Below are positions 2,747 to 61,741 of a DNA stretch of 63,454 nt, piece by piece. The position numbers and the translations under genes were made by a program. The notes under the pieces were generated by a model, which made no database searches, was not told where the DNA came from, and was given only the letters and a program-made list of their open reading frames with translations. Origin of the DNA: Chloroflexota bacterium (lineage in GTDB: Bacteria; Chloroflexota; Limnocylindria; Limnocylindrales; CSP1-4); contig DAOTYQ010000180.1 of assembly GCA_034434735.1 (NCBI GenBank), positions 1 through 63,454 on the forward strand, given 5' to 3'. Position 1 is the stretch's first letter. Each line of letters opens with the position of its first letter.

Positions 2747-3097
2747 ATGGGTGATCTCGAGCGCTCGGTCGGGCGGCTCCTCAGCCTCGGCACCGCCGTG
2801 AGCGTCGGGCTCCTCGCCGTCGGGGTCGGGCTCATGCTCCTCGCCGGCCAGTCGCCCCTCGATCCGAGCTACCCGCCCCTCGATCTGGCCCGTCTCCCGG
2901 CCGATCTCGTCGGCGGCCGCCCGGGCGGCTTCCTCTGGCTCGGTCTCGTGGCGGCGATGGCGACGCCGGCGGCACGGGTCGTCGCCTCCCTGATCGGGTA
3001 CCTCCAGGCCCGGGAGTGGGGGATGGTGGCCATCGCCCTCGCCGTTCTCGGCGTCATCGGGGCGAGCATCGTCGTCGGGGGCGCCCTCGAGGGATGA
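2747..3097 (+). CDS. DUF1634-like small membrane protein (usual partner of DUF81/TauE genes)
   Basis: 116 aa, hydrophobic segments at both ends, directly downstream of the TauE gene. Family assignment is from memory of the DUF81-DUF1634 gene pair. Confidence 0.6.
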   Translation: MGDLERSVGRLLSLGTAVSVGLLAVGVGLMLLAGQSPLDPSYPPLDLARLPADLVGGRPGGFLWLGLVAAMATPAARVVASLIGYLQAREWGMVAIALAVLGVIGASIVVGGALEG

Positions 3098-4152
3098 CGG
3101 ACGGGCTCCTCGACCTCGTCGCCCTCGGCGTCGCCCTCGTCGTCATCCTCGTCGGCGCCGAGCTCTTCACGAACGGGATCGAGTGGTTCGGCCACAAGCT
3201 CGACCTGGCCGAAGGTGCCGTGGGCTCGGTCCTGGCGGCCGTCGGGACGGCCCTCCCGGAGACGATGATCCCGACGGTGGCGATCCTCTTCGGTGGCGGG
3301 GCCGCGGCCGAGGCCATCGGGGTCGGCGCGGTCCTGGGGGCACCGTTCATGCTCGCCACGCTGGCCATGTTCGTGACCGGGGTCGCCGTCATCGTCGCCG
3401 GCCGCAGCCGTCCGACCGGCGACCGGATGATCGTCGCCCGCGACGTCCTCGGTCACGACCTCCGGGTCTTCGCCGTCGCCTACGCCATCGCCATCGCCTC
3501 GGCCCTCCTCCCGAGCGAGCTCCTCGCCGTCCGGCTCGGGGTCGCCGCCGTCCTCCTCGCCATCTACGTCTGGTACGTGAAGGAGCACCTCGAGGCCGAG
3601 GAGCGGATCGAGGGGGCAACCCTCGCTCCGCTCCGGTTCCGGCACCTCGACCGGCGCGGTCACCGGCGGAACCCGGCGGTGCCGCGGCTCCGGGTCGTCG
3701 GCGTCCAGGTCGGCGTGGCCCTCGCCTGCATCGTCGGCGGGGCGGTCCTCTTCGTCGAGGCGGTCGAGGCGATCGCCCGCGCCGTCGCCGTCCCGGAAGC
3801 GCTCCTCGCCCTCGTCATCGCCCCCATCGCCACCGAGCTGCCCGAGTAGTTCAACAGCGTCCTCTGGATCCGGGCCGGCAAGGACACCCTCGCCCTCGGC
3901 AACATCACCGGAGCCATGGTCTTCCAGGCGACGATCCCGACGGTCATCGCCATCGTCTTCGCCTCGTCGACCTGGGTCCTGGGCGCGGGCTCGGCCCTCG
4001 CCTTCGCCTCGGCGGCGATGGCCTTCCTGTCGGCCGGGCTCATCTTCGGGCCCTTCGGCGGATCGCAGCTCCACGGCCAGCGGCTGCTCCTCGGCGGCCT
4101 CGTCTACGTCGGCTATCTCGTCCTCGTCGGGCTCGGCCTGGTCGGCGGCTGA
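3094..4152 (+). CDS. Ca2+/cation antiporter (CaCA, YrbG-like) family protein, interrupted by an in-frame TAG at 3847-3849
   Basis: ATG 3094 overlaps the upstream stop (ATGA). Alpha-repeat motifs GTALPETMIP and, second half, IATELPE-TAG-FNSVLWIRAGKDTLALGNITGAMVFQATIP. ORFs 3016..3849 and 3916..4152 are in the same frame. Joined length 352 codons. May be a pseudogene, an error or readthrough. Confidence 0.75.
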
Positions 4153-5460: not shown

Positions 5461-7251
5461 TCAGGGCGCCGGGGGTGGCGTCAGGGCGGGGGTCGTCCGG
5501 GCGGTGACGACGAGGAAGTCGACCCGGGCCGTCGGGTCCTCGGTCGGGCTGACCTCGACGCCGAGGGCCGCGGCCAGGAAAGCGGCCGTGGCCGGGAAGC
5601 GGGTCTCGGCGCCGTTGTAGGCGAGGAGGCGGGTCCGGCTCGGTCGACCCTCCGGCCGCTGGTTCGGTGCCGAGGCGGCCACGCCCCAGCTCTCGAGGTA
5701 CCGGGCGAGGTCGCTCGCCTGGCCGGCGACGCCCGACCCGTTCAGGACCCAGACCGTGGCACCCTCGCCGGCGAGGGCCTCTCGGCGGGCCTCCTCGGCC
5801 GGATCGGCGGTGAAGGCCTCCCGGACGGCGGCCCGGATCCGCTTCACGTTCGGGACGATGACGTACCCGCGCGGGTCGCCGGAGAGGATCTCGCGGGCGT
5901 AGAAGGGCGGCGCGAAGACGTAGGAGCGGACGGAGCGGGGGTCGATCTGCCCGGCGAGGGAGAGGAGCTTCGGGAGCTGGTCGACCGGGACGTCCGTCCG
6001 GACCGTCGACTTCAGGGCGTCGACGAGCTCGTCGAGGCGCGGCAGGACGGCGGCGATGTCCGTCTGCTGACGGAGCGAGAGGAGGACGCGCTGCTGGCGC
6101 TGGCCGCGGTCGAAGTCGGACGAGCCGTGGCGGGAGCGGGCGTAGACGAGGGCCTCGGCGCCGGTCATGTGCTGGACGCCGGCCGGGATGTAGACCCGCC
6201 GGAGCCGTCGGTCGGGGCCGGGGTAGCGGTCGTCGACGACGGGGAGCTGGACGTTGATCGTCACCCCGCCGAGGGCGTCGACGAGCCGGGTGAAGCCGTC
6301 GAAGTTGACCTCGACATACCAGCGGATGTCGAGGCCGTAGAGCTCGCCGAGGATCGCCTTCAGGGCGTTGTAGCCGCGGGTCCGGTCGGTGCCCGGCCAG
6401 AGGTCGGCCCTGTGGCGGTTGTTGACGAACCAGGAGTTGATTTTCGATCGGTAGACGGTCCCCCAGAGGGCACGGGCCGGGCCGGCCGGAACGGGGACGT
6501 CGACGGTGTCGCGGGGGAGGCTGAAGAGGGCGACCCGGCCGGTCGGCGGATCGATGGACGCGACGATGAGGGTGTCGGTGTTGTGGCCGCCGCCCTGCTC
6601 GTCCGACCCGATGAGGAGGACGTTCAAGCGCTCCTTCCCGTCCCAGGGCGGGAGAGGCGACGGCGTGAGGACGGGCGAGGCGGCGCTGGTCGGCGACGGG
6701 GTCGCTGGGCTGCCGCTCGCAGCCGAGCCGCCGGGCGTGGGCGACGGACCGGCCTCGTCGCAGGTCGCCGTCCCGGTCTCGTCGAAGATGCAGTTGACGA
6801 GGGCCATCGCCTGGAGGTCGTAGCGGGCGACGGCGACGTGGAAGCCGGTCATGACGACGAGGACGGCAAGGAGGCCGGCCGTCGAGGCTGGTCGAAGGCG
6901 GAGCGCCGGTGGCCCATAGCGGTCGCCCGCCACGGCCGCCTCGTTCAGGTAGACGGCGACCCGCCAGGCGTCGACGGCGGCGACGGCGCGGTAGACGAGG
7001 AGGATGACGTCGAGGACGAGGATCGCGGTGAGGACGGTGGGCTGGACGAGGATCCCGATCAGGGTCAGCCGATCGATGCGGAGGACGAGCCCTGCGACTA
7101 GGGCGAGGGCGAGCAGCGGTGGGGCTGCGAAGCCGAGGGCGCGGGCCGGGGCGCCGGCGTAGAGATGGCCGAGGCCGGGGAAGAGGAGCGACAGGACGGC
7201 GGCGGCGAAGGCCGACCGCGGTGCCCGCCGAGGCGACGCTGGGTCGTGCAT
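5461..7251 (-). CDS. LytR-CpsA-Psr (LCP) family cell-envelope phosphotransferase with N-terminal TM region and C-terminal LytR_C-like domain
   Basis: LNVLLIGSDEQGGGHNTDTLIVASIDPPTGRVALFSLPRDT...GYNALKAILGELYGLDIRWYVEVNFDGFTRLVDALGGVTINV...ALVYARSRHGSSDFDRGQRQQ. Confidence 0.88.
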   Translation of the reverse strand: MHDPASPRRAPRSAFAAAVLSLLFPGLGHLYAGAPARALGFAAPPLLALALVAGLVLRIDRLTLIGILVQPTVLTAILVLDVILLVYRAVAAVDAWRVAVYLNEAAVAGDRYGPPALRLRPASTAGLLAVLVVMTGFHVAVARYDLQAMALVNCIFDETGTATCDEAGPSPTPGGSAASGSPATPSPTSAASPVLTPSPLPPWDGKERLNVLLIGSDEQGGGHNTDTLIVASIDPPTGRVALFSLPRDTVDVPVPAGPARALWGTVYRSKINSWFVNNRHRADLWPGTDRTRGYNALKAILGELYGLDIRWYVEVNFDGFTRLVDALGGVTINVQLPVVDDRYPGPDRRLRRVYIPAGVQHMTGAEALVYARSRHGSSDFDRGQRQQRVLLSLRQQTDIAAVLPRLDELVDALKSTVRTDVPVDQLPKLLSLAGQIDPRSVRSYVFAPPFYAREILSGDPRGYVIVPNVKRIRAAVREAFTADPAEEARREALAGEGATVWVLNGSGVAGQASDLARYLESWGVAASAPNQRPEGRPSRTRLLAYNGAETRFPATAAFLAAALGVEVSPTEDPTARVDFLVVTARTTPALTPPPAP

Positions 7252-16852: not shown

Positions 16853-17919
16853 CGGAGGCGGCGAACCAGCCCCGCAGCGGCCGAACGGCGGCCGGGCCGG
16901 AGCGACGGGTCCGGGCCGTCTTCCTCGGCAGCGGGCCCTTCGGCCTGCCGTCCCTCGAGCGGCTGGCCGCCCGCCGCGACGTCGAGCTCGTCGCCGTCGT
17001 CACCGCTCCGCCGCGACCAGCCGGCCGCCACCGACGCCCGACCCCGACCCCGATCGGGGCCTGGGCGGCGGCCCACGGGTTCGCCGTCTTGGCGCCGGCT
17101 CGGCTCCGATCCCCCGACGCCATCGCGGCGATCCTCGCCCTCGGGCCCGAGCTGGCCGTCCTCGCCGACTACGGTCAGATCGTCCCGCCGCCGCTCCTCG
17201 AGCTCCCTTTCGGTGCCCTCAACCTCCACCCCTCGCTCCTCCCTCGCCACCGCGGGGCGGCGCCGGTGGCGGCGGCGATCCTCGCCGGCGACCGCGAGAC
17301 GGGGGTCACCCTCTTTCGGATGGACGCCGGCCTCGACAGCGGACCCATCGTCGCCCGTCGGGTCGTGCCGATCGCCCCCGACGACACGGCGGCGACCCTG
17401 GAAGCGCGCCTCGCCCTCGTCGCCGCCGACCTCCTCGATGACGTCCTGGCCGCCTGGCTCCGTGGCGAGATGGCGGCCGTGCCCCAGCCGTCGGCCGGGG
17501 CGACGCTGACGCGACCGCTCCGGCGCGACGACGGCCGCCTCGACCCCTTCCGCCCGGCCGCCGAGCTCGAGCGGCAGGTCCGGGCCTTCCAGCCCTGGCC
17601 GGGCGCCTTCCTGGAGACGGCGACGAGCCGGCTCATCGTCCACGCCGCCCGGGTCGAGCCGTCGGAGCCCGACGACGAGCCCGGCCGGCTCGTCGCCAGC
17701 GGCGACGGTCTCGCCCTCGCGACCCGGGCCGGTCGGCTCCGGCTCGAGCGGGTCCAGCCGGCCGGTGGACGGGTCATGAGCGGCGCCGAGTATCGGCGCG
17801 GCCGTCCGAGGCTCGTCGGAACGACGGTCCCGGCGAGCCGCCCGGAGCCGGCCGTCCGAGACGGGTCCTCGGATGGGAGGCCACCGGCCGACGGCAGCTC
17901 GGAGGGGTCGCTACGATGA
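16849..17919 (+). CDS. fmt: methionyl-tRNA formyltransferase (no canonical start; CTG 16849 proposed)
   Basis: RAVFLGSGPFGLPSLERLA...VVTAPPRPAGR...NLHPSLLPRHRGAAPV...GVTLFRMDAGLDSGPI. The frame is open from 16318, but the first ATG/GTG/TTG is TTG 17089, about 80 codons into the conserved N-domain. CTG 16849 overlaps the def TGA (CTGA) and has GGGAG 7 nt upstream. Confidence 0.85.
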   Translation: MTEAANQPRSGRTAAGPERRVRAVFLGSGPFGLPSLERLAARRDVELVAVVTAPPRPAGRHRRPTPTPIGAWAAAHGFAVLAPARLRSPDAIAAILALGPELAVLADYGQIVPPPLLELPFGALNLHPSLLPRHRGAAPVAAAILAGDRETGVTLFRMDAGLDSGPIVARRVVPIAPDDTAATLEARLALVAADLLDDVLAAWLRGEMAAVPQPSAGATLTRPLRRDDGRLDPFRPAAELERQVRAFQPWPGAFLETATSRLIVHAARVEPSEPDDEPGRLVASGDGLALATRAGRLRLERVQPAGGRVMSGAEYRRGRPRLVGTTVPASRPEPAVRDGSSDGRPPADGSSEGSLR

Positions 17920-20431: not shown

Positions 20432-20450
20432 GGGTCTTCCCGCGCGACGG

Positions 20451-20657
20451 TCAGTCCCCGGTCCGGGCGGCCTTGGTGAGGGTCCGACTGCAGCGGGTGC
20501 AGACGAGGGCGCGACGGCTGCGGCCGTCGATGACGACGAGTCGCGACTGGAGGTTCGGTTCGTAGCGGCGGTGGACGCGGACCCGGTTGTTCCCGGACGA
20601 CTGTGGATTGAAGCCGCCCATCGCAACCTTGCCGCAGATGGCGCAAGTCCGGGCCAT
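20451..20657 (-). CDS. rpmB: 50S ribosomal protein L28
   Basis: MARTCAICGKVAMGGFNPQSSGNNRVRVHRRYEPNLQSRLVVIDGRSRRALVCTRCSRTLTKA (68 aa). Last part of minus ORF 20451..21137. Confidence 0.9.
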   Translation of the reverse strand: MARTCAICGKVAMGGFNPQSSGNNRVRVHRRYEPNLQSRLVVIDGRSRRALVCTRCSRTLTKAARTGD

Positions 20658-35912: not shown

Positions 35913-35992
35913 GCCGGCGCCCCGCCGACCCGTCTGGGGGCCGGCGGACGCGACACGCGGCGGCCGGGGCGGCCGCCACTCCGAGAAGGGGC

Positions 35993-37324: not shown

Positions 37325-37363
37325 GGAGCCGTCGGGGCCGACCCACCGACGGAGGTGAGGACG

Positions 37364-39115
37364 ATGGTCGAGGAACCGATCCAGTCGAGCCGCGAGGACG
37401 CCGAGCATCGAAGCCCGGGCGGTCAGCGGCTCGAGACGAGTCGCGTCGAGACCGCGCGGGTGCCGGGGCCGACCTCAGCCGCCGGTCGGCTCCGATGGCT
37501 CCTCGCCGCCGCCGTGTCCATCGTCGTCGTCGCGGGCTCGGTGGCGATCGCCGCCCTCGTCGTCGGCGGCGCCGGACCTTCTGGTCTCCTCGCCCGGGCA
37601 CCGGGCGATAGTCTCCTCTACGCCGAGCTCCGCTTCGACCTGCCCGGGGGCCAGCGGGCGGCGGTCGGCCGCTTCTTGAGCGCCTTTCCCGGGTTCGACG
37701 ACCAGGCCCTCCTCGAGGCGAAGCTCGATGATCTCTTCGAGCGAGCCGTCGGTGCCGCTACCGACGGCCGCCTCCACTGGAGCGGCGGGATCGAGGCCTG
37801 GTTCGGGGGCGAGGCGGCCGTCGTCGTCCGGGGTCTGTCGAAGAGCATCGTCGGTGGGCCCGAGCTGCCGGTCCCGCTCCTCCTGGCCACCGTCGTCGAC
37901 CCGGCGGCGGCCCGGAGCTGGGTGACGGCCGCTCTCGATGCGTCTGGCGTAGCGTGGACCCGCGACACCATCGCCGGGGCCGACGCCATCCTCGTCGGCG
38001 GCGCCGTCGACGCGCGGGCGGTGGCCGTCACCGACACCCTCCTCGTCGGCGGCCGAGTGGACGACGTCCGAGCCGTCCTCGAGACGACCCCGGCGTCGAG
38101 CCTCGGGGCGGCCGACCGGCCGAAGGCAGCCGCCGCGGCCCTCCCGGCCGACCACGTCGCCTGGCTCTACGTCGACGGCGCCGCCTACCGGTCCTGGTTG
38201 GCCGGCCTCCTGGCCGGGACGGGCACGAGCCTCTCGACGGCGCTCCTCTCGCCTGCCCTCGTCGAGATCCCGGACTGGGCGAGCGTCGAGCTGCGGTTCG
38301 ACGGCGACCGGCTCGTCGTCGAGGCCGCGATCCCCACGGGAGGGACGGCGGCGACGGACGCCCCGAGTCGGCTGGCCGGACTCGTGCCCGGGGACGCCGT
38401 CGTCTTCGTTGGCGTCGGTGGGGTCGGGCCACGGCTGACCGAGCGGGCCCGCGTCCTGCAGGCCGATCCGGCCCTCGGCCCGGCTCTCGAGCCGGTCTTT
38501 GCCGCCCTCGATCGGATCGGCGGCGTCGAGGCCCTCGTCGGCTGGATCGACGAGCTCGGCTTCACCGCTGGCGTCGAGGGCGACGACGTTTGGGGCGCTC
38601 TCCTGGCCGTGCCGCGCGATCGGGCAGCGGCCGAAGCGCTCGCCGGCAGCCTCCTCAATCTCGCCCGCCTGGGCCTCCCCGGTCTGCGGGTCGACGAGGA
38701 GACGGTGGCGGGTCGGACCATCGTCTCGGTCGAGCTCCCGGGATCCGCGGCCGAGAGGGCCGACGGTCGGATTGGGGTCGCCTGGACCATCGGAGCCGCA
38801 ATCATCGTCGCCCGCGATGCGACGACGGTCCGCCGGATCCTCGGGGTCGAACCGGGCGCCTCGCTCGCCGACGAGGCACGTTACGCTACGCTTCTCGCGC
38901 GGGCCGGCGGTCCGGCCGGGTCGAGCGTCGCCTTCCTCGATCTCGCTCGGCTCCGGACCCTCGTCGAGGCGAAGCTCGAGCCCGCCGAACGGGCCCGTTA
39001 CGAGCGCGACATCCGGCCGTATCTAGCGCCCTTCGATGCGGCCGTCGCCCTGACCCGGACCGACGGGGGCATCCAGCGGACCGTCTTCTTCGTCCGCGCC
39101 GCCGAGGTCGAGTAA
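37364..39115 (+). CDS. membrane-anchored hypothetical protein (DUF3352-like)
   Basis: ATG 37364 with GGAGG 8 nt upstream. One N-terminal TM helix (LLAAAVSIVVVAGSVAIAALVVGG), then about 500 aa Ala-rich ectodomain: LLYAELRFDLPGGQRAAVGRFLSAFPGF. DUF3352 resemblance is from memory only. Confidence 0.55.
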   Translation: MVEEPIQSSREDAEHRSPGGQRLETSRVETARVPGPTSAAGRLRWLLAAAVSIVVVAGSVAIAALVVGGAGPSGLLARAPGDSLLYAELRFDLPGGQRAAVGRFLSAFPGFDDQALLEAKLDDLFERAVGAATDGRLHWSGGIEAWFGGEAAVVVRGLSKSIVGGPELPVPLLLATVVDPAAARSWVTAALDASGVAWTRDTIAGADAILVGGAVDARAVAVTDTLLVGGRVDDVRAVLETTPASSLGAADRPKAAAAALPADHVAWLYVDGAAYRSWLAGLLAGTGTSLSTALLSPALVEIPDWASVELRFDGDRLVVEAAIPTGGTAATDAPSRLAGLVPGDAVVFVGVGGVGPRLTERARVLQADPALGPALEPVFAALDRIGGVEALVGWIDELGFTAGVEGDDVWGALLAVPRDRAAAEALAGSLLNLARLGLPGLRVDEETVAGRTIVSVELPGSAAERADGRIGVAWTIGAAIIVARDATTVRRILGVEPGASLADEARYATLLARAGGPAGSSVAFLDLARLRTLVEAKLEPAERARYERDIRPYLAPFDAAVALTRTDGGIQRTVFFVRAAEVE

Positions 39116-40335: not shown

Positions 40336-41135
40336 GTCTCGAGATCGACGTCCTAACCCTCTTCCCGGAGGTCGTCGAGGTTCCGCTGCGAGCGAGCATC
40401 CCGGGCCGGGCCCTCGAGCGGGGTCTCGCCGTGCTGCGGGTCCACGATCTGCGGCGGTGGGGCCTCGGCCGCCACCGGGCGGTCGACGACTACCCGTACG
40501 GTGGTGGGGCTGGGATGGTCCTCCGGCCCGAGCCGGTGGCGGCCGCCCTCGAGGAGCTGCGGCGCCCCGACTCCTGCGTCATCCTGCCCGATCCAGCCGG
40601 GGAACCCTTCCGTCAGGAGCGAGCCCGCGATCTCGCCCGGCGCTCGCACCTCATCCTCATCTGCCCGCGCTACGAGGGGGTCGACGAACGGATCCGCGAG
40701 CTCGTCGACCTCGAGATCTCCATCGGCGACGTCGTCCTCAGCGGCGGCGAGATCGCCGCCCTCGTCATCCTCGATGCGGTCCTCCGCCTTCTGCCCGGGG
40801 CCATCGACCCGGCCTCGACGGCCGAGGAGTCCTTCGCCGACGGCCTCCTGGAATACCCCCAGTACACCCGGCCGCCGGTCTTCCGCGGCCGCTCGGTCCC
40901 GGCCGTCCTTCGAAGCGGCCATCACGAGGCGGTCCGGCGTTGGCGTCGCCGGGAGGCGGTCCGCCGGACGCTGGAGCGGCGGCCCGACCTCCTCGTCGGC
41001 CGCCAGCTCGACTCGGAGACGGCCGCCATCCTCGACGAGCTCCGACGGGAGCGCGGCCGAGCCTCCGAGCCCGCCCCCGGGGAGCCGCGCGCCGCCTCGG
41101 AGGCAGCCGACGGGGAGCCCGCCGGCCGACCCTGA
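40332..41135 (+). CDS. trmD: tRNA (guanine37-N1)-methyltransferase TrmD
   Basis: IDVLTLFPE...[14 protein letters not shown]...[13 protein letters not shown]...[13 protein letters not shown]...[13 protein letters not shown] overlap with rimM. Confidence 0.95.
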
Positions 41136-51607: not shown

Positions 51608-52837
51608 GTGAGTCGAGATTTCATCGGCGCCCTCCTGCAACTGAACGCCGAGAAGCAGGTCCCCCGCGAACAGCTCCTCCGAACCGTCGAGGAGGCGATC
51701 CAGGCTGCCTACCGGCGGGTCGACGGCGACGAGGACATCCACGTCCGGATCGATCCCGAGACGGGCAAGATCCGGGTCTTCCGGGCGCGCCTCGTCGTCG
51801 AGGTCGTCGAGGACCCGCAGACCCAGTTCACCCTCGAGGAGGCCCGCCGCCACGACCCGAACGCCAAGGTCGGCGACCTCGTGGAGTATCAGCAGCTCGA
51901 CCAAGCGTCCTTCGGCCGGATCCACGCCCAGACGGCCAAGCAGGTCGTCCTCCAGCGGCTCCGGGAAGCCGAGCGCGACGTCGTCTACGACCACTTCGCC
52001 AGCCGCGAGGGCGAGCTCATCAGCGGGACCGTCAAGCGGGTCGAACCGCGGGCCATCATCCTCGATCTCGGGCGCGATGTCGAGGGGATCCTGGCCACGA
52101 CCGAGCAGTCGCCGATCGAGCACTACCGGATCGGCCAGACCGTCAAGGCGTACGTCCTCGAGGTCCGGCGCTCACCGCGGGGGCCCCAGGTCTTTCTGTC
52201 GCGGACCCACAAGGGCTTCCTGCGCCGCCTCTTCGAGCTCGAGGTCCCCGAGATCCACGCCGGGACCGTCGAGATCAAGGCCATCGCCCGTGAGCCCGGC
52301 AGTCGGAGCAAGGTCGCCGTGGCGAGCCGTCAGGAGGGGCTCGATCCGGTCGGGGCGACGGTCGGCCAGCGGGGAGCGCGCGTCCAGGCCGTCGTCGCCG
52401 AGCTCGGCGGCGAGAAGATCGACGTCATCCCCTGGTCGGAGGACCCGGCGGCCTTCGTTGCCAACGCCCTCTCCCCGGCCCAGGTCCTGTCCGTCGACAT
52501 CGACCAGGAGCGACGGATCGCGACGGTGACGGTCCCGGAACGGATGCTGTCGCTGGCCATCGGTCGGGAGGGCCAGAACGCCAGGCTCGCCGCCCGACTC
52601 ACCGGCTGGCGGATCGACATCCGGAGCGACGTCGCCCACGCCGAACCCGCCGCCAAGCCCGACGCGGCGAAGCCGGCGGCCGACCCGGTGGACCCGGCGA
52701 GCGATCCCGGTGGGCCCGAGGCGCCGGCGGCCGCTTCGGCGGCCGCGACCGCCGCGACGGCGACCGAGACGGCGGCCCGGCCGAAGCGCGCCGCCCGGCG
52801 GACGGCCAAGGCGGCGGACGGGGAGGGATCGTCGTAG
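51608..52837 (+). CDS. nusA: transcription termination/antitermination factor NusA
   Basis: GTG 51608, 7 nt after GGAGG. S1 domain GELISGTVKRVE. KH domains REPGSRSKVAV...DPVGATVGQRGARV and LAIGREGQNARLAARLTGWRIDI. Ala/Pro-rich tail. Confidence 0.95.
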   Translation: MSRDFIGALLQLNAEKQVPREQLLRTVEEAIQAAYRRVDGDEDIHVRIDPETGKIRVFRARLVVEVVEDPQTQFTLEEARRHDPNAKVGDLVEYQQLDQASFGRIHAQTAKQVVLQRLREAERDVVYDHFASREGELISGTVKRVEPRAIILDLGRDVEGILATTEQSPIEHYRIGQTVKAYVLEVRRSPRGPQVFLSRTHKGFLRRLFELEVPEIHAGTVEIKAIAREPGSRSKVAVASRQEGLDPVGATVGQRGARVQAVVAELGGEKIDVIPWSEDPAAFVANALSPAQVLSVDIDQERRIATVTVPERMLSLAIGREGQNARLAARLTGWRIDIRSDVAHAEPAAKPDAAKPAADPVDPASDPGGPEAPAAASAAATAATATETAARPKRAARRTAKAADGEGSS

Positions 52838-53223
52838 CCCGGGCCGTCGGCGCCGGCCGGGCTCGCCCCGTCCCGACCCGGACCTGCGTCGCCTGTCGGA
52901 CGGCCCGACCGAAGCGGGAGCTCGTCCGCGTCGTCCGGACACCCGAGGGTTCCGTCGTCGTCGATCCGAGCGGCAAGCGGAGCGGACGGGGGGCGTATCT
53001 CTGCCCGACGCCGGCGTGCCTCGCCCTCGCCAGGCGGCGGGGCGGCCTCGCCAGGGCCCTCGGCGTGCCGATCCCGGCCGAGCTCCTCGACGGACTCGAG
53101 CAGGGGATCGGGGGGCCGGCGGCCGGGGCCGAAGCGGCGGCGCCGACGGGCCCGTCCGGCAGGGTTGGCGCCGATGTCCGAGAATCAGAGTCGATGAACG
53201 GAGGACAGCGTGGCACGAAGTAG
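52828..53223 (+). CDS. YlxR/DUF448 family RNA-binding protein (start codon unresolved)
   Basis: Own translation of frame 1: ...[48 protein letters not shown]... Classic YlxR motifs between nusA and infB. No ATG/GTG/TTG upstream of the motif, so it is absent from the ORF track. ATC 52828 is only a candidate. Stop is TAG 53221-53223. Confidence 0.7.
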
Positions 53224-55108
53224 GAGCGGAACGCGCGGTCGTCGAGGGCCGCGGAAACCGCCGCGACGAGACCAGCCCTTCGCCGGGGCGCCGGTCGGCG
53301 TCGCGGAGCCGCGGGAGCGGGGCGCCATCGAGCTGCCGTCGACGATCACCGTCGCCGACCTGGCCGGCCAGCTCGGGGTGAACGTCGCGGACGTCATCCG
53401 CGAGCTCATCAAGAACGGGATCTTCGCGACCATCAACCAGCTCATCGACCGCGACACCGCCTCCCTCGTCGCTGCGGAGCTCGGCTTCGAGGTCGCCGAG
53501 CCGGTCGCCGCCGGCGGCAACGGAACCGCCGAGTCGGCCGTCGAGGCGGCGCCGGCCGAGGCGGCCAGGGAGCGCCTCTTCGAGGAAGAGGATCCGAGCC
53601 TTCTCCAGCCACGGGCGCCCATCGTCACCGTCATGGGCCACGTCGACCACGGTAAGACGAGTCTCCTCGACGCCATCCGCAAGACCGCCGTCGCTGCCGG
53701 CGAACGGGGCGGCATCACCCAGCACATCGGGGCCTCCGAGGTCGTCAAGGACGATCGGCGGATCGTCTTCCTCGACACGCCGGGCCACGAGGCCTTCACC
53801 GCGATGCGGGCCCGCGGGGCGTAGGTGACCGACATCGCCATCATCGTCGTCGCCGCCGACGACGGGGTCATGCCCCAGACCGTCGAGGCGATCAGCCACG
53901 CCCGGGCGGCCAAGGTCCCCATCGTCATCGCCCTCAACAAGATCGACAAGCCCGACGCCAACCCGGAGCGCGTCAAGACCGAGCTCTCCGAGCACGGCGT
54001 CGTCATCGAGGAGTACGGCGGCGACGTCCCCCTCGTCCCCGTCTCGGCCAAGACCGGCCAGGGCCTCGACGACCTCCTCGAGGTCGTCCTCCTCGTCGCC
54101 GACCTGGCCGAGCTCCGGGCCAACCCGAAGCGTCCCGCCGTCGGAACCGTCATCGAAGCCCAGCTCGACCGGGGCCGAGGTCCGGTAGCGACGGTCATCG
54201 TCCAGACGGGCACCCTCCGCGTCGGGGACATCGTCGTGGCCGGTCAGACCCTGGGCCGGGTCCGGGCCCTCGAGAACGCCAACGGCAAGCGGGTCCCGAA
54301 GGCGGGGCCGGCCACGGCGGTCGTCGTGCTCGGCCTCTCCGACGTGCCGGAGGCCGGCGACATCCTCCAGGTCGTGCCCGACGAGAAGACGGCGCGGGCC
54401 ATGGTCGAGGAACGACGCGCGGCGGCGAGCCGGGCCGGGGAGACCCAGACCCGGGCGACCCTCGAAGACCTCTACCGACAGTTCCAGGCCGGCCAGGCGA
54501 AGGAACTTCGCCTCATCGTCAAGGCCGACGTCGCCGGTTCGCTGGAGGCGATCCGCCATGCCCTCGAGCAGCTTCCCGCCGATGACGTCCGGATCAACAT
54601 CCTCCACGAGGCGGCCGGCGAGATCACCGACAACGACATCATGCTCGCCGCGGCCTCGAATGCCATCGTCATCGGTTTCAACACGCGGATCAGCGAGACG
54701 GCCCGCCGGTCGGCCCAGGAGGCGGGCGTCGACGTCCGGCTCTACGACATCATCTACCAGCTCACCGACGACATCGAGCGGGCGCTCAAGGGCATGCTCG
54801 AGCCCGAGGTCGTCGAGGTCATCGAGGGCCGAGCCGAGGTTCGCCAGATCTTCCGGGTCGGGAAGGGGACCGTCGTCGCCGGCTGCTACGTGACCGAGGG
54901 TCGGATCGTCCGCGGCGGCGGGGCGCGGATCTGGCGGGGCGGCAAGGTCGTCGCTACCGACCGGATCGAGTCGCTCCGGCGCTTCCGCGACGACGTCCGG
55001 GAGGTCGCCGCCGGGTTCGAGTGCGGGATCGGGCTGGCCTCCTTCGGCGACTTCGTCGAGGGCGACATCATCGAGTGCGTCACGAGCCAGACGGTCCAGC
55101 GGAGCTAG
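53210..55108 (+). CDS. infB: translation initiation factor IF-2, reading frame interrupted by an in-frame TAG at 53822-53824
   Basis: GTG 53210 after [23 protein letters not shown] (G1), [43 protein letters not shown] (G4). The two track ORFs, 53210..53824 and 53825..55108, are contiguous and in frame. Confidence 0.9.
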
Positions 55109-55169: not shown

Positions 55170-55745
55170 ATGCCGACGTACCGCCGGCGGCGGATCGACG
55201 AGCTCCTCCGGGAGACGATCGGCGAGTTGCTGACCCGGGAGGTCGTCGATCCGCGGATCGGCTTCGCCACCGTCACCGAGGTCGAGACGACGCCGGACCT
55301 CGGCCACGCCCGGGTCTGGGTGAGCGTCATCGGCGAGACGGCCGAGCGGGCGGCGACCATCGCCGCCCTCGAGCGGGCGATGGTCTTCGTCCGGCGGGAG
55401 CTCGGGCACCGGCTCCATCTCCGTCGGATCCCGGAGCTCCAGGTTCGGCTGGACGAGTCGGCCGACCGGGGGACGCGGGTCCTTCGGCTCCTCGCCGACA
55501 TTGAGGCCGGCCGCGAGCCGACGCCGCTCCCCGAAGGCGAGTCGCTTCCCCAGCCCGTGCCACGGCGGGCCGAACCGGTCGACGCGACCGCGGCCCCGGG
55601 ATCCGACGAGGCCGAGCCCGCCGTGGCCGGGCGGCGGGGGCGTCGCCCGAGCCGATCGGGATCCGGCACGGATCGCCGGAGCGGGCCCGTGCACGGCGGC
55701 CGGCCGACACCGGGACGCGGAGTGCGGCGCCAACACGAGCGATGA
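55170..55745 (+). CDS. rbfA: ribosome-binding factor A with Arg-rich C-terminal extension
   Basis: RRRRIDELLRETIGELLTREVVDPRIGFATVTEVETTPDLGHARVWVSV...LRRIPELQ. Confidence 0.9.
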   Translation: MPTYRRRRIDELLRETIGELLTREVVDPRIGFATVTEVETTPDLGHARVWVSVIGETAERAATIAALERAMVFVRRELGHRLHLRRIPELQVRLDESADRGTRVLRLLADIEAGREPTPLPEGESLPQPVPRRAEPVDATAAPGSDEAEPAVAGRRGRRPSRSGSGTDRRSGPVHGGRPTPGRGVRRQHER

Positions 55746-59137: not shown

Positions 59138-61741
59138 ATGGAGGACCCACCACCCGTGTCAACGACATTCGAAACGACCATCGGCGGCCGGACGCTCACG
59201 ATCGAGACCGGCAGGATGGCCCTCCTCGCCGACGGGTCGGTCACCGTCCGCTACGGCGACACCGTCGTCCTCGGGACGGCGAACCGGTCCGACCCCCGGC
59301 CCGGACTCGACTTCTTCCCCCTGACCGTCGACTTCGAGGAGCGGATGTACGCCGCCGGGAAGATCCCGGGCGGCTTCATCAAGCGCGAATCGCGACCCTC
59401 GGAGGGTGCCATCCTTGCGGCCCGGCTCACCGACCGACCGATCCGACCGCTCTTCCCCGAGGGCTACCGAGACGACGTCCAGGTCGTCATCACGGTCCTC
59501 TCGACCGATCAGGAGAACGATCCCGACATCCTCGGCACGATCGCCGCCTCGGCCGCCCTCTCGATTAGCGAGATCCCCTTCCTCGGCCCGGTCGGGGCAG
59601 TCCGGGTTGGTCGGATCGGCGGCGAGTTCGTCGTCAACCCGACCATCAGTGAGCTCGAGCACTCGGAGATCGACCTCGTCGTCTCCGGGACCCGGGACGC
59701 GATCATGATGGTCGAGGCGGGGGCGAGGATCGTCCCCGAGGACGTCATGGCCGAGGCGATCCTCTTCGGGCACCGCGCCCTCCAGCCCCTCATCGACGTC
59801 CAGGAGGAGCTCGTCCGGGCCGTCGGCAAGCCGAAGCGGATCCCCTACCTGGAGCCGGGGACCGGCTCGATCCTCACCTTCGTCGACGCCGTCGCCGCCG
59901 ACCGGGAGTTCGTCGTCGTCGACGTGGAGACGACGGGGACCGACCCGAGCCTCCACGACATCGTCGAGATCGGCGCCGTCCGGGTCCGGCAGGGCGAGAT
60001 CGTCGAGCGCTTTGCGACCCTCGTCGACCCGGGCCGGCCGATCGTCGGTGTCCAGCTCCACGGCCTCACCGACGCCGACGTCCGCGGCGCGCCGTCGCCG
60101 CGGGAGGCGGCCGAGCGGTTCCTCGCCTTCGCCGGGGACGCCCTCATCGTCGGCCACAACGTCGGCTTCGACATCGCCTTCCTCGAGACCGCCCTGGGCG
60201 ACGGTCGCCGGTTCGAGTACGGTCGCTACCTCGACACCCTCGTCATCGCCCGGGAGGCGTTCCCCGGGGCGCCAGAGACGTACAAGCTCGGCGATCTCGC
60301 TGCCTTCTTCGGGCTGGCGGCCGGGGGCCACCGCGCCCTCCCCGACGCCGAGGTGACGGCCCAGATCCTCCTCCGCCTGGCGGCGGATCTGCCGCCCCGG
60401 ATCGCCCGGCTCCGCGACGGGATCGCCGCGGCGATCCGCGCCCACCGGACGGGCGGCGACCCGGCGACCCTCCTCGAGGCGGCTCGCCGCGAGGCGCGGG
60501 TCGGCAAGAACCTCTTCGCCGCCGTCCAGAAGCAGGTCGTCCGCGAGCTCACCCTCAACGAGGGGATCCGGATGGACGGGCGGGCCCCCGACGAGATCCG
60601 GCCGATCTCCATCGAGGTCGGTCTCCTTCCACGGGCTCACGGTTCTGCCCTCTTCACCCGCGGCCAGACCCAGGCCCTCACCATCGCCACCCTCGGTCCG
60701 TCCTCGGACGTCCAGCGGATCGACACGATCAGCCCCGAGACCGAGAAGCGGTACCTCCACCACTACAACTTCCCGCCGTACAGCACCGGCGAGAACAAGC
60801 CGCTCCGCGGCCCGAGCCGGCGCGACATCGGCCACGGCAACCTGGCCGAGCGGGCCCTCCTGCCGGTCCTGCCGTCCCAGGACGAGTTCCCGTACGTCAT
60901 CCGGCTCGTCTCGGAGATCGTGACCTCCAACGGCTCGACCTCCATGGCCTCGACCTGCGGCTCGAGCCTCGCCCTCATGGATGCCGGCGTCCCGATCAAG
61001 GCGCCCGTCGCCGGAGCGGCGATGGGGCTCATGACCGATCCAGCCAGCGGTCGCTTCGTCGTCCTGACCGACATCCTCGGCAAGGAGGACGCCTTCGGCG
61101 ACATGGACTTCAAGGTCGCCGGGACCCGGGAGGGGATCACCGCCGTCCAGATGGACATCAAGGTTCGCGGGATCGGCGAGGCGATCATCCGGGAGGGACT
61201 CGCCCGGGCCCATGCCGCCCGGCAGTTCATCCTCGACAAGATGGTGGCCGTCATGCCGGCGCCGCGGACCGAGATGAGCCGCTTTGCACCGCGGATCATC
61301 ACCATCAAGATCAACCCGGAGAAGATCCGCGACATCATCGGCAAGGGCGGGGCGACGATCCGCAAGATCCAGGACGAGACCGGGACCGAGATCAACGTCC
61401 AAGACGACGGCACCGTCGAGATCGCCGCGGTCAACGCCGAGAACAGCCGGAAGGCGATCCAGTGGATCGAGTCGCTGACCCGCGAGGTCGAGGTCGGTGG
61501 CCTCTACCTCGGCAAGGTGACCCGGATCATGAGCTTCGGTGCCTTCGTCGAGATCCTGCCCGGCAAGGAGGGGCTCGTCCGGATCAGCGAGCTCGCCGAC
61601 TACCACGTCCCCTCGGTGGAGGACGTCGTCTCGGTCGGCGACGAGATCATGGTCGTCGTCACCGAGATCGACCGCCAGGGCCGGATCAACCTGTCCCGCA
61701 AGGCGGCGATGCAGCGGCACCTCGCCCGCTCGGCGCGCTGA
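59138..61741 (+). CDS. pnp: polynucleotide phosphorylase with an inserted DEDDh exonuclease domain (867 aa)
   Basis: Two RNase PH domains (GRMALLADGSV...FPLTVDFEERMYAAGKIPGGF(I)KRE; ...LPRAHGSALFTRGQTQAL...SNGSTSMASTCGSSLALMDAGVP...FKVAGT), KH (GKGGATIRKI) and S1 (GKVTRIMSFGAFVEI). About 180 extra residues lie between PH1 and the helical linker. Start is ATG 59138 or GTG 59156. Confidence 0.93.
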   Translation: MEDPPPVSTTFETTIGGRTLTIETGRMALLADGSVTVRYGDTVVLGTANRSDPRPGLDFFPLTVDFEERMYAAGKIPGGFIKRESRPSEGAILAARLTDRPIRPLFPEGYRDDVQVVITVLSTDQENDPDILGTIAASAALSISEIPFLGPVGAVRVGRIGGEFVVNPTISELEHSEIDLVVSGTRDAIMMVEAGARIVPEDVMAEAILFGHRALQPLIDVQEELVRAVGKPKRIPYLEPGTGSILTFVDAVAADREFVVVDVETTGTDPSLHDIVEIGAVRVRQGEIVERFATLVDPGRPIVGVQLHGLTDADVRGAPSPREAAERFLAFAGDALIVGHNVGFDIAFLETALGDGRRFEYGRYLDTLVIAREAFPGAPETYKLGDLAAFFGLAAGGHRALPDAEVTAQILLRLAADLPPRIARLRDGIAAAIRAHRTGGDPATLLEAARREARVGKNLFAAVQKQVVRELTLNEGIRMDGRAPDEIRPISIEVGLLPRAHGSALFTRGQTQALTIATLGPSSDVQRIDTISPETEKRYLHHYNFPPYSTGENKPLRGPSRRDIGHGNLAERALLPVLPSQDEFPYVIRLVSEIVTSNGSTSMASTCGSSLALMDAGVPIKAPVAGAAMGLMTDPASGRFVVLTDILGKEDAFGDMDFKVAGTREGITAVQMDIKVRGIGEAIIREGLARAHAARQFILDKMVAVMPAPRTEMSRFAPRIITIKINPEKIRDIIGKGGATIRKIQDETGTEINVQDDGTVEIAAVNAENSRKAIQWIESLTREVEVGGLYLGKVTRIMSFGAFVEILPGKEGLVRISELADYHVPSVEDVVSVGDEIMVVVTEIDRQGRINLSRKAAMQRHLARSAR
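59858..60397 (+). other. DnaQ/PolC-type DEDDh 3'-5' exonuclease domain embedded in pnp (residues ~241-420)
   Basis: ExoI FVVVDVETTG (D262 = nt 59921-59923, E264). ExoII LIVGHNVGFDIAFL (D345). ExoIII HRALPDAEVTAQI (H398 = nt 60329-60331, D403). Continuous with the pnp frame on both sides. Confidence 0.8.

Follow-up and report, generated by a model that had tools for sequence, protein, structure and literature searches.

An in-frame amber codon, private to one deposited contig, interrupts the IF2 gene of a hot-spring Chloroflexota bacterium in which TAG is an ordinary terminator

The stretch of DNA analysed here, referred to as the window, is one complete NCBI contig, 63,454 bp long and 74% GC, and carries about 60 tightly packed housekeeping genes, nearly all of them on the plus strand. 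The proteins most similar to its own are from Chloroflexota ('Candidatus Limnocylindrales', hot-spring MAG KatS3mg065), and the source organism is Limnocylindria-like and lives in a hot spring. No tRNA genes were found on the contig with ARAGORN, and no Rfam family matched it. When genome contigs were scanned with the IF2 sequence, the best match listed was 72% identical, and there was no close relative among the matches listed. The features on which the analysis turns are the following:

3094..4152, plus strand: cation antiporter of the Na_Ca_ex family (PF01699), 352 codons, interrupted by TAG at 3847-3849
51608..52837, plus strand: nusA, intact, with TAG as its stop; 5' neighbour of infB in the conserved order nusA-infB-rbfA-nrnA-truB
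53210..53821, plus strand: 5' part of infB, 204 codons by translation, encoding the IF2 N-terminal region and G1 (GHVDHGKT) to G3 (DTPGH)
53822..53824, plus strand: in-frame TAG in place of Lys AAG at residue 205, a single A-to-T change at 53822 that is private to the contig
53825..55108, plus strand: 3' part of infB, 427 codons and a terminal TAG, encoding G4 (NKID), the remainder of the G domain, domain II and the C-terminal fMet-tRNA-binding domains
55170..55745, plus strand: rbfA, intact, 3' neighbour of infB, placed from gene calls on near-identical contigs

Positions 53210-55108 translate as one IF2 frame of 632 codons that contains a single internal stop and ends with TAG, and both the start and the length of this frame are those of the 632-aa IF2 in close relatives, whose proteins contain the domains PF04760, PF00009, PF22042 and PF11987. 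Residues 5-631 of the window protein align with the E. coli IF2 structure 3jcj (E=3e-169), and the 3' part aligns end to end with solved IF2 structures, keeps a third-position GC of 0.95 in frame and opens with GTG, the ancestral Val codon (53819-53830 reads GCG TAG GTG ACC). In the structure alignment, residue 205 is paired with the Gln of E. coli MRARGAQATDI, so the TAG falls inside the GTPase fold, between G3 and G4. The preliminary description of this DNA had placed an in-frame TAG there with no frameshift, and translation and alignment both agree with it. We conclude that infB in the window belongs fully to the IF2 family and keeps the usual nusA-infB-rbfA setting; its interruption looks like a classical amber nonsense allele. 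infB is essential and normally present as a single copy; a Pfam survey of the roughly 60 genes on the contig revealed no second IF2-like gene.

To establish which codon the TAG replaced, we examined the 120 best IF2 relatives, 119 of which could be scored at residue 205: Lys is present in 37 and Arg in 82, and all four of the nearest relatives (92-97% identical) have Lys. At the nucleotide level, the site is AAG in two contigs that are each 99.93% identical to the window, L025 (JGI 3300043543) and L026 (Logan SRR35812382), in L001 and L002, which represent a strain 96% identical to the window, and in every other assembly that spans it. It had been suggested beforehand that homologues carry Gln or Glu here and that the ancestral codon was CAG or GAG; E. 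coli does have Gln, but the present lineage has Lys or Arg at this residue, and its ancestral codon is AAG. Apart from K205, the window IF2 is identical to the protein encoded by L025 (P0243). There are no private substitutions in infB downstream of the TAG and no other lesion, and the earlier idea of a decaying gene finds no footing in a protein that otherwise equals an intact one. Differences from the 96% identical strain fall mostly at third codon positions (50, compared with 10 at first and 6 at second positions), which indicates that infB is under purifying selection.

The truncated IF2 products of 204 aa and 427 aa are recorded only for this NCBI contig, and look-ups of the exact products found neither piece outside it. 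These look-ups have low power because short-read contigs of the strain break around the site, stopping at about 53651 and restarting between 53773 and 53999, so that few of them span it. An exact scan of JGI metagenome contigs with a 30-mer containing the infB TAG likewise returned no matches. This negative is weak: a 30-mer containing the antiporter TAG, used as a positive control, also gave none, even though the exact sequence is present on L019, itself a JGI contig, and the collection scanned is thus incomplete. A search of proteins with short segments for fragments ending at RARGA yielded only unrelated broken or partial IF2 sequences, with no enrichment at that position.

We searched the whole contig for internal stops with a frame scan on third-position GC. 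The only true in-frame internal stops are those at 53822 and 3847, i.e., 2 in 18,951 codons. A candidate at 1069 proved to be the real stop of rpsF, with ssb following in the same frame, and the matches on the minus strand are antisense shadows of plus-strand genes. The called genes end with TGA in 42 cases, with a genuine TAG in 13 and with TAA in 4. The 13 genes that end with TAG are rpsF, ssb, a TauE-family gene, a radical-SAM gene, fakA, acpP, rpsP, rnhB, frr, uppS, nusA, infB and rpsO, and in those scanned the Pfam profiles are matched to their ends (for example, FakA-like_C 216/216, RRF 164/164 and S15 81/81). Beyond the 13 stops, the coding signature is lost in frame and the next in-frame stop lies a median of 131 codons further on; as 13 genes end in this way, efficient read-through of TAG would extend about one fifth of all proteins. 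When 60,944 codons were compared across 41 contigs of the species, stop and sense interchanged only at the 53822 and 3847 sites, and no terminal stop switched type. These results show TAG to be an ordinary terminator and exclude wholesale reassignment within the window. The preliminary description had considered a systematic cause worth testing in view of the second stop; within the window, a code change is excluded as that cause.

The second stop, which the preliminary description had noted in a conserved gene at 3847, is indeed located within the Na_Ca_ex antiporter, where the protein reads IATELPE*FNSVLW. The residue at this position is Lys in 120 of 120 homologues (ATELPEKFNS), and the contigs that carry AAG all belong to one haplotype, about 99% identical to the window. 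In the window contig, the fragment products are 251 aa and 78 aa. The TAG is also present in four other assemblies (L017, L018, L019 and L242). The 78-aa product from downstream of the stop occurs on ENA ERZ27247256, Logan SRR9650299 and JGI 3300031812, which are 99.8-99.9% identical and all have TAG; these three contigs all begin at window position 3500 and may share reads. L242 (ENA ERZ27247269) has the TAG on a slightly different haplotype and, added to the three possibly read-sharing contigs, brings the number of independent observations to at least two. A Logan contig of the AAG-type strain, assembled from SRR35812529, stops exactly 1 base before the TAG site, as expected at a polymorphic site, where the de Bruijn graph branches. 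The antiporter TAG is thus a real, segregating allele. Three amino acid changes, I201V, R329Q and A348G, map to the branch leading to it; R329Q, at a residue that is Arg in 103 of 119 homologues, and A348G both lie downstream of the stop, and L242 has an additional Ala-to-Val change. Small as these numbers are, the substitutions may hint at relaxed constraint on the gene. A systematic sequencing error driven by context is excluded at this site, since the context is identical in nine contigs with AAG. We also considered a motif common to the two A-to-T sites (G-A-A-G-K-T); their flanks match no more than composition predicts.

The quality of the assembly was judged from private differences, counted against contigs at least 99.5% identical to the window that cover 47,140 bases. 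There are 53 of these, mostly synonymous or intergenic. Counting only those for which at least two contigs agree with each other and differ from the window, about 20 are synonymous and 6 non-synonymous, giving a dN/dS of about 0.1. The only two private indels (35992 and 51436) are both intergenic, and none of the roughly 60 genes is frameshifted. Two clusters of private variants, at 17439-17481 and 40595-40659, look like recombination tracts. Rather than random errors, the private differences are real variants that selection has filtered, and the infB TAG is the only strongly deleterious one among them. Random consensus errors must be rare in so clean an assembly, which lowers the prior for an error at 53822.

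We also estimated how often a new TAG would arise from AAG, using the codon usage of the window (264 AAG, 361 CAG, 1298 GAG, 260 TAC and 168 TGG, among others) and the substitution spectrum observed among strains of the species. AAG to TAG is the rarest single-step route to TAG, with a probability of 0.055 per event, and two such events out of two have a probability of about 0.003 under the mutation spectrum, or 0.009 unweighted. The same codon table gives a probability of about 0.21 for two stops to derive from one and the same precursor codon, whichever it is.

For the T at 53822, an error or an allele without function is the most likely explanation. We give a probability of about 0.5 to the reading in which this base is either wrong in the consensus or marks a private, non-functional allele, with the antiporter TAG being an ordinary nonsense allele. 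infB would then be an ordinary single gene for full-length IF2, whose Lys-205 AAG happens to read TAG in one deposited contig. The T itself would be a consensus or sequencing error, or else a defective allele caught by the assembler that could not be the only infB of the cell; there would be no recoding, with TAG a normal terminator in this genome; the antiporter TAG would be a separate, real nonsense allele of a dispensable gene; and the AAG precursor at both sites would be a coincidence. A base-call or assembly error had been among the explanations put forward for infB at the outset, and it stays the leading option given that the T is private and the 99.93% identical contigs have AAG. An infB without any other fault, the role of TAG as a normal stop that lacks backups and the frequency of broken IF2 fragments in public assemblies also favour an artefact or a non-functional private allele. 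The clean assembly, the origin of both stops from AAG and the demonstrably real antiporter TAG all count against an error. In an informal Bayesian comparison, the probabilities of an artefact or dead allele and of suppression differ by no more than a few-fold.

Suppression, the main rival, which we consider possible but doubtful, would involve a Lys-inserting amber suppressor in the strain, its prophage or a plasmid, formed from a tRNA-Lys by the one mutation that changes the anticodon CUU to CUA. UAG would be read in part as Lys, in competition with RF1, and full-length IF2 and antiporter would be made at reduced yield; AAG-to-TAG changes would be near-neutral and would accumulate, the antiporter first and infB recently. 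Any such suppressor would probably insert Lys, given that both TAGs replace a Lys AAG. This shared origin, at a probability of about 0.003 under mutation alone, speaks for the proposal, and an inserted Lys would restore the wild-type protein at both sites. Also consistent with it are the persistence of the antiporter TAG on two or more haplotypes, with four further assemblies carrying it, the SRR35812529 contig that ends one base short of that TAG, an assembly that is otherwise clean with private variants filtered by selection, and an infB that is essential yet otherwise intact. Since the suppressor model expects about 0.7 neutral AAG-to-TAG changes on the roughly 1% branch leading to the clade (a rough, inferred figure based on 264 AAG codons) versus a similarly rough 0.03 among private variants, the antiporter event would be unremarkable and the infB event somewhat lucky. 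Viral contigs (IMG/VR), some of high GC among them, often carry CUA amber-suppressor tRNAs whose D arm is Lys-like; however, GC-rich CUA tRNAs were few in the viral-contig scans, and none came from samples holding this species. Also against suppression are the lack of any tRNA or Rfam match on the contig, the 13 TAG terminators that have neither a nearby backup stop nor any tendency to switch to TGA or TAA, and the absence of the infB TAG from both near-identical contigs that span the site. The antiporter changes R329Q and A348G, with the Ala-to-Val change of L242, look more like relaxed constraint than like a gene in use, and the sample is one of two stops. Alleles suppressed by E. coli supE/supF or by synthetic tRNA-Lys(CUA) are similar in arising by a single-base change from sense to TAG in an otherwise intact gene while TAG serves as terminator elsewhere, and here both stops are one step from a codon of a single amino acid, Lys; unlike those cases, no suppressor tRNA is seen on the contig and the infB allele occurs in one assembly only. 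We found nothing relevant in the literature on natural amber suppression or code change in Chloroflexota. Should the infB allele be genuine and its carriers viable, UAG must be decoded as an amino acid in this strain often enough to be useful. The organism might then be, and we put this forward tentatively, a wild thermophilic Chloroflexota strain with a chromosomal or prophage tRNA-Lys(CUA), in which UAG is ambiguous between stop and Lys, AAG-to-TAG changes become fixed by drift even in essential genes like infB, and stop-codon capture is at an early, reversible stage. A natural Lys-inserting amber suppressor in Chloroflexota would be new, and if true would offer an observable intermediate toward stop-codon reassignment in a free-living bacterium.

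Complementation of a real TAG allele by a wild-type infB in the same cell (a second gene copy, or further chromosomes of a polyploid or filamentous organism), or an appreciable frequency of the allele in a mixed population from which the mutant path was assembled, seems to us improbable. Several strains of the species do co-occur in the same samples, their assemblies break repeatedly around infB, and the TAG allele is private, very recent and free of downstream changes; against this, the contig has no second IF2-like gene, infB is as a rule single-copy, and a recessive lethal allele would not be expected to become the most common one. Much less probable still is a split IF2, in which ribosomes would stop at the UAG and restart at the adjacent GUG, and the 204-aa and 427-aa pieces would associate into a working factor. 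A GTG does directly follow the TAG, with a weak Shine-Dalgarno-like GGGG 5 nt upstream of it, and E. coli infB does use internal in-frame GUG/AUG starts to produce the shorter forms among IF2 alpha, beta and gamma. However, both the GTG and the GGGG before it belong to the ancestral R-G-A-K-V codons, which are unchanged and found in all relatives, with no adaptation to reinitiation; alignment with solved IF2 places the break between switch II and strand beta-4, within one GTPase fold; the E. coli isoforms keep the whole G domain, whereas a start at 53825 would lose G1-G3; and the arrangement is found in no relative. We consider it scarcely credible that UAG is a sense codon, for Lys or pyrrolysine, throughout the organism. 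Both in-frame TAGs occupy Lys positions, and pyrrolysine derives from lysine, but TAG is the stop at the canonical end of 13 of about 60 genes, infB included, read-through of rpsF would fuse S6 to SSB, an in-frame TAG accounts for 2 of 18,951 codons compared with 264 for AAG, and strains that are 99% identical have AAG at both sites. Stop-codon reassignment is known for TAG in some phages and for TGA in Mycoplasma, SR1 and Gracilibacteria. As in those systems, in-frame stops here occur in conserved genes and the conserved sequence resumes directly after them; in reassigned codes, however, the codon occurs often within genes and does not end them, whereas here it is found twice in frame and at 13 gene ends. 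The infB interruption shows none of the stop-codon reassignment features among those tested. Pyrrolysine is known mainly from methylamine methyltransferases, and its use requires pylTSBCD. The resemblance to pyrrolysine decoding lies in an in-frame UAG and a lysine-derived residue; neither site here is of the methyltransferase kind, and no pylTSBCD or other pyl genes and no methylamine methyltransferases are present among the roughly 60 genes of the contig. DGR-type adenine mutagenesis, RNA editing and ribosomal bypass were dropped as explanations, as nothing in the sequence supports them.

The reading that we favour, an error or dead allele at 53822, has its closest parallel in the nonsense pseudogenes and consensus errors of MAGs, which likewise appear as an isolated, private, gene-breaking base with intact alleles in near-identical assemblies; the present case differs in that the assembly has no other signs of error and the gene is essential. 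Should the T prove to be an error or a dead allele, the locus is a reminder about data quality, as one single-base nonsense call in a deposited genome can split an essential gene into two annotated 'proteins', and the pieces of 204 aa and 427 aa both enter protein databases. Broken IF2 fragments are common on long public contigs, where they arise mostly via frameshifts.

The second in-frame TAG of the window lies in a gene for a Na_Ca_ex (PF01699) antiporter:

3094-4152, plus strand, antiporter; in-frame TAG at 3847-3849, AAG to TAG at an invariant Lys

The nonsense allele at this site is real and segregates; it is also present in four further assemblies (L017, L018, L019 and L242), on at least two haplotypes. 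Downstream of it the antiporter carries the changes R329Q and A348G, and for this reason the sequence suggests that constraint on the protein is relaxed.

Broken infB calls in public data are a recurrent assembly artefact. In the public protein collection, short pieces of the IF2 G domain, 65-118 aa in length, are numerous on long contigs of up to 3.6 Mb, and in most of these pieces the tail is frameshifted after ...MRARGA.... In the IF2 protein scan of genome contigs, generic IF2 motifs fill the matches listed, among which close relatives are all absent. The scan of JGI metagenome contigs did not return Ga0308411_10049715, a known carrier of the exact query 30-mer, and negative 30-mer scans of that collection are therefore weak.

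Compared with all near-identical contigs, the window has two tight groups of private, mostly synonymous substitutions, one in fmt (17439-17481) and the other in trmD (40595-40659), which look like short recombination tracts acquired from another strain. Two single-C insertions are also private, at 35992 and 51436 (absent from two and five near-identical contigs, respectively), and both are intergenic: the former is directly upstream of the ffh ATG and the latter, between ispG and nusA, falls within a CCC run.

Three further genes of the window are:

59138-61741, plus strand, polynucleotide phosphorylase (PNPase), 867 aa, with an internal RNase_T/DEDD exonuclease domain (PF00929)
37355-39115, plus strand, ORF of 583 aa between ffh and rpsP, strong coding signal
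5461-7251, minus strand, LytR-family gene

Judged by its domain order, the PNPase is an unusual PNPase-exonuclease fusion. The PF00929 domain spans residues of about 245-397, after the first RNase_PH/PH_C pair and before the second RNase_PH domain, a position usually occupied by an all-alpha domain; gene calls on JGI contig L025, which is near-identical to the window, give the identical order, insert included. The 583-aa ORF, for which a Pfam search gave no match, is kept on contigs L231-L233. Strand bias across 1-63454 is extreme, with the LytR-family gene the only called gene not on the plus strand; the window gene map omits rpmB (L28), which is called on the minus strand of contig L237 near window position 20450-20650.

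Upstream of the antiporter lie two genes:

1917-2729, TauE, 270 aa, stop codon TAG
2747-3097, DUF1634 gene, 116 aa

In the window, as in most strains, these are distinct genes. A single 393-aa ORF on JGI contig Ga0587145_12421 joins TauE to DUF1634, a fusion that presumably arose by an indel; the comparison covers L003 and L008.
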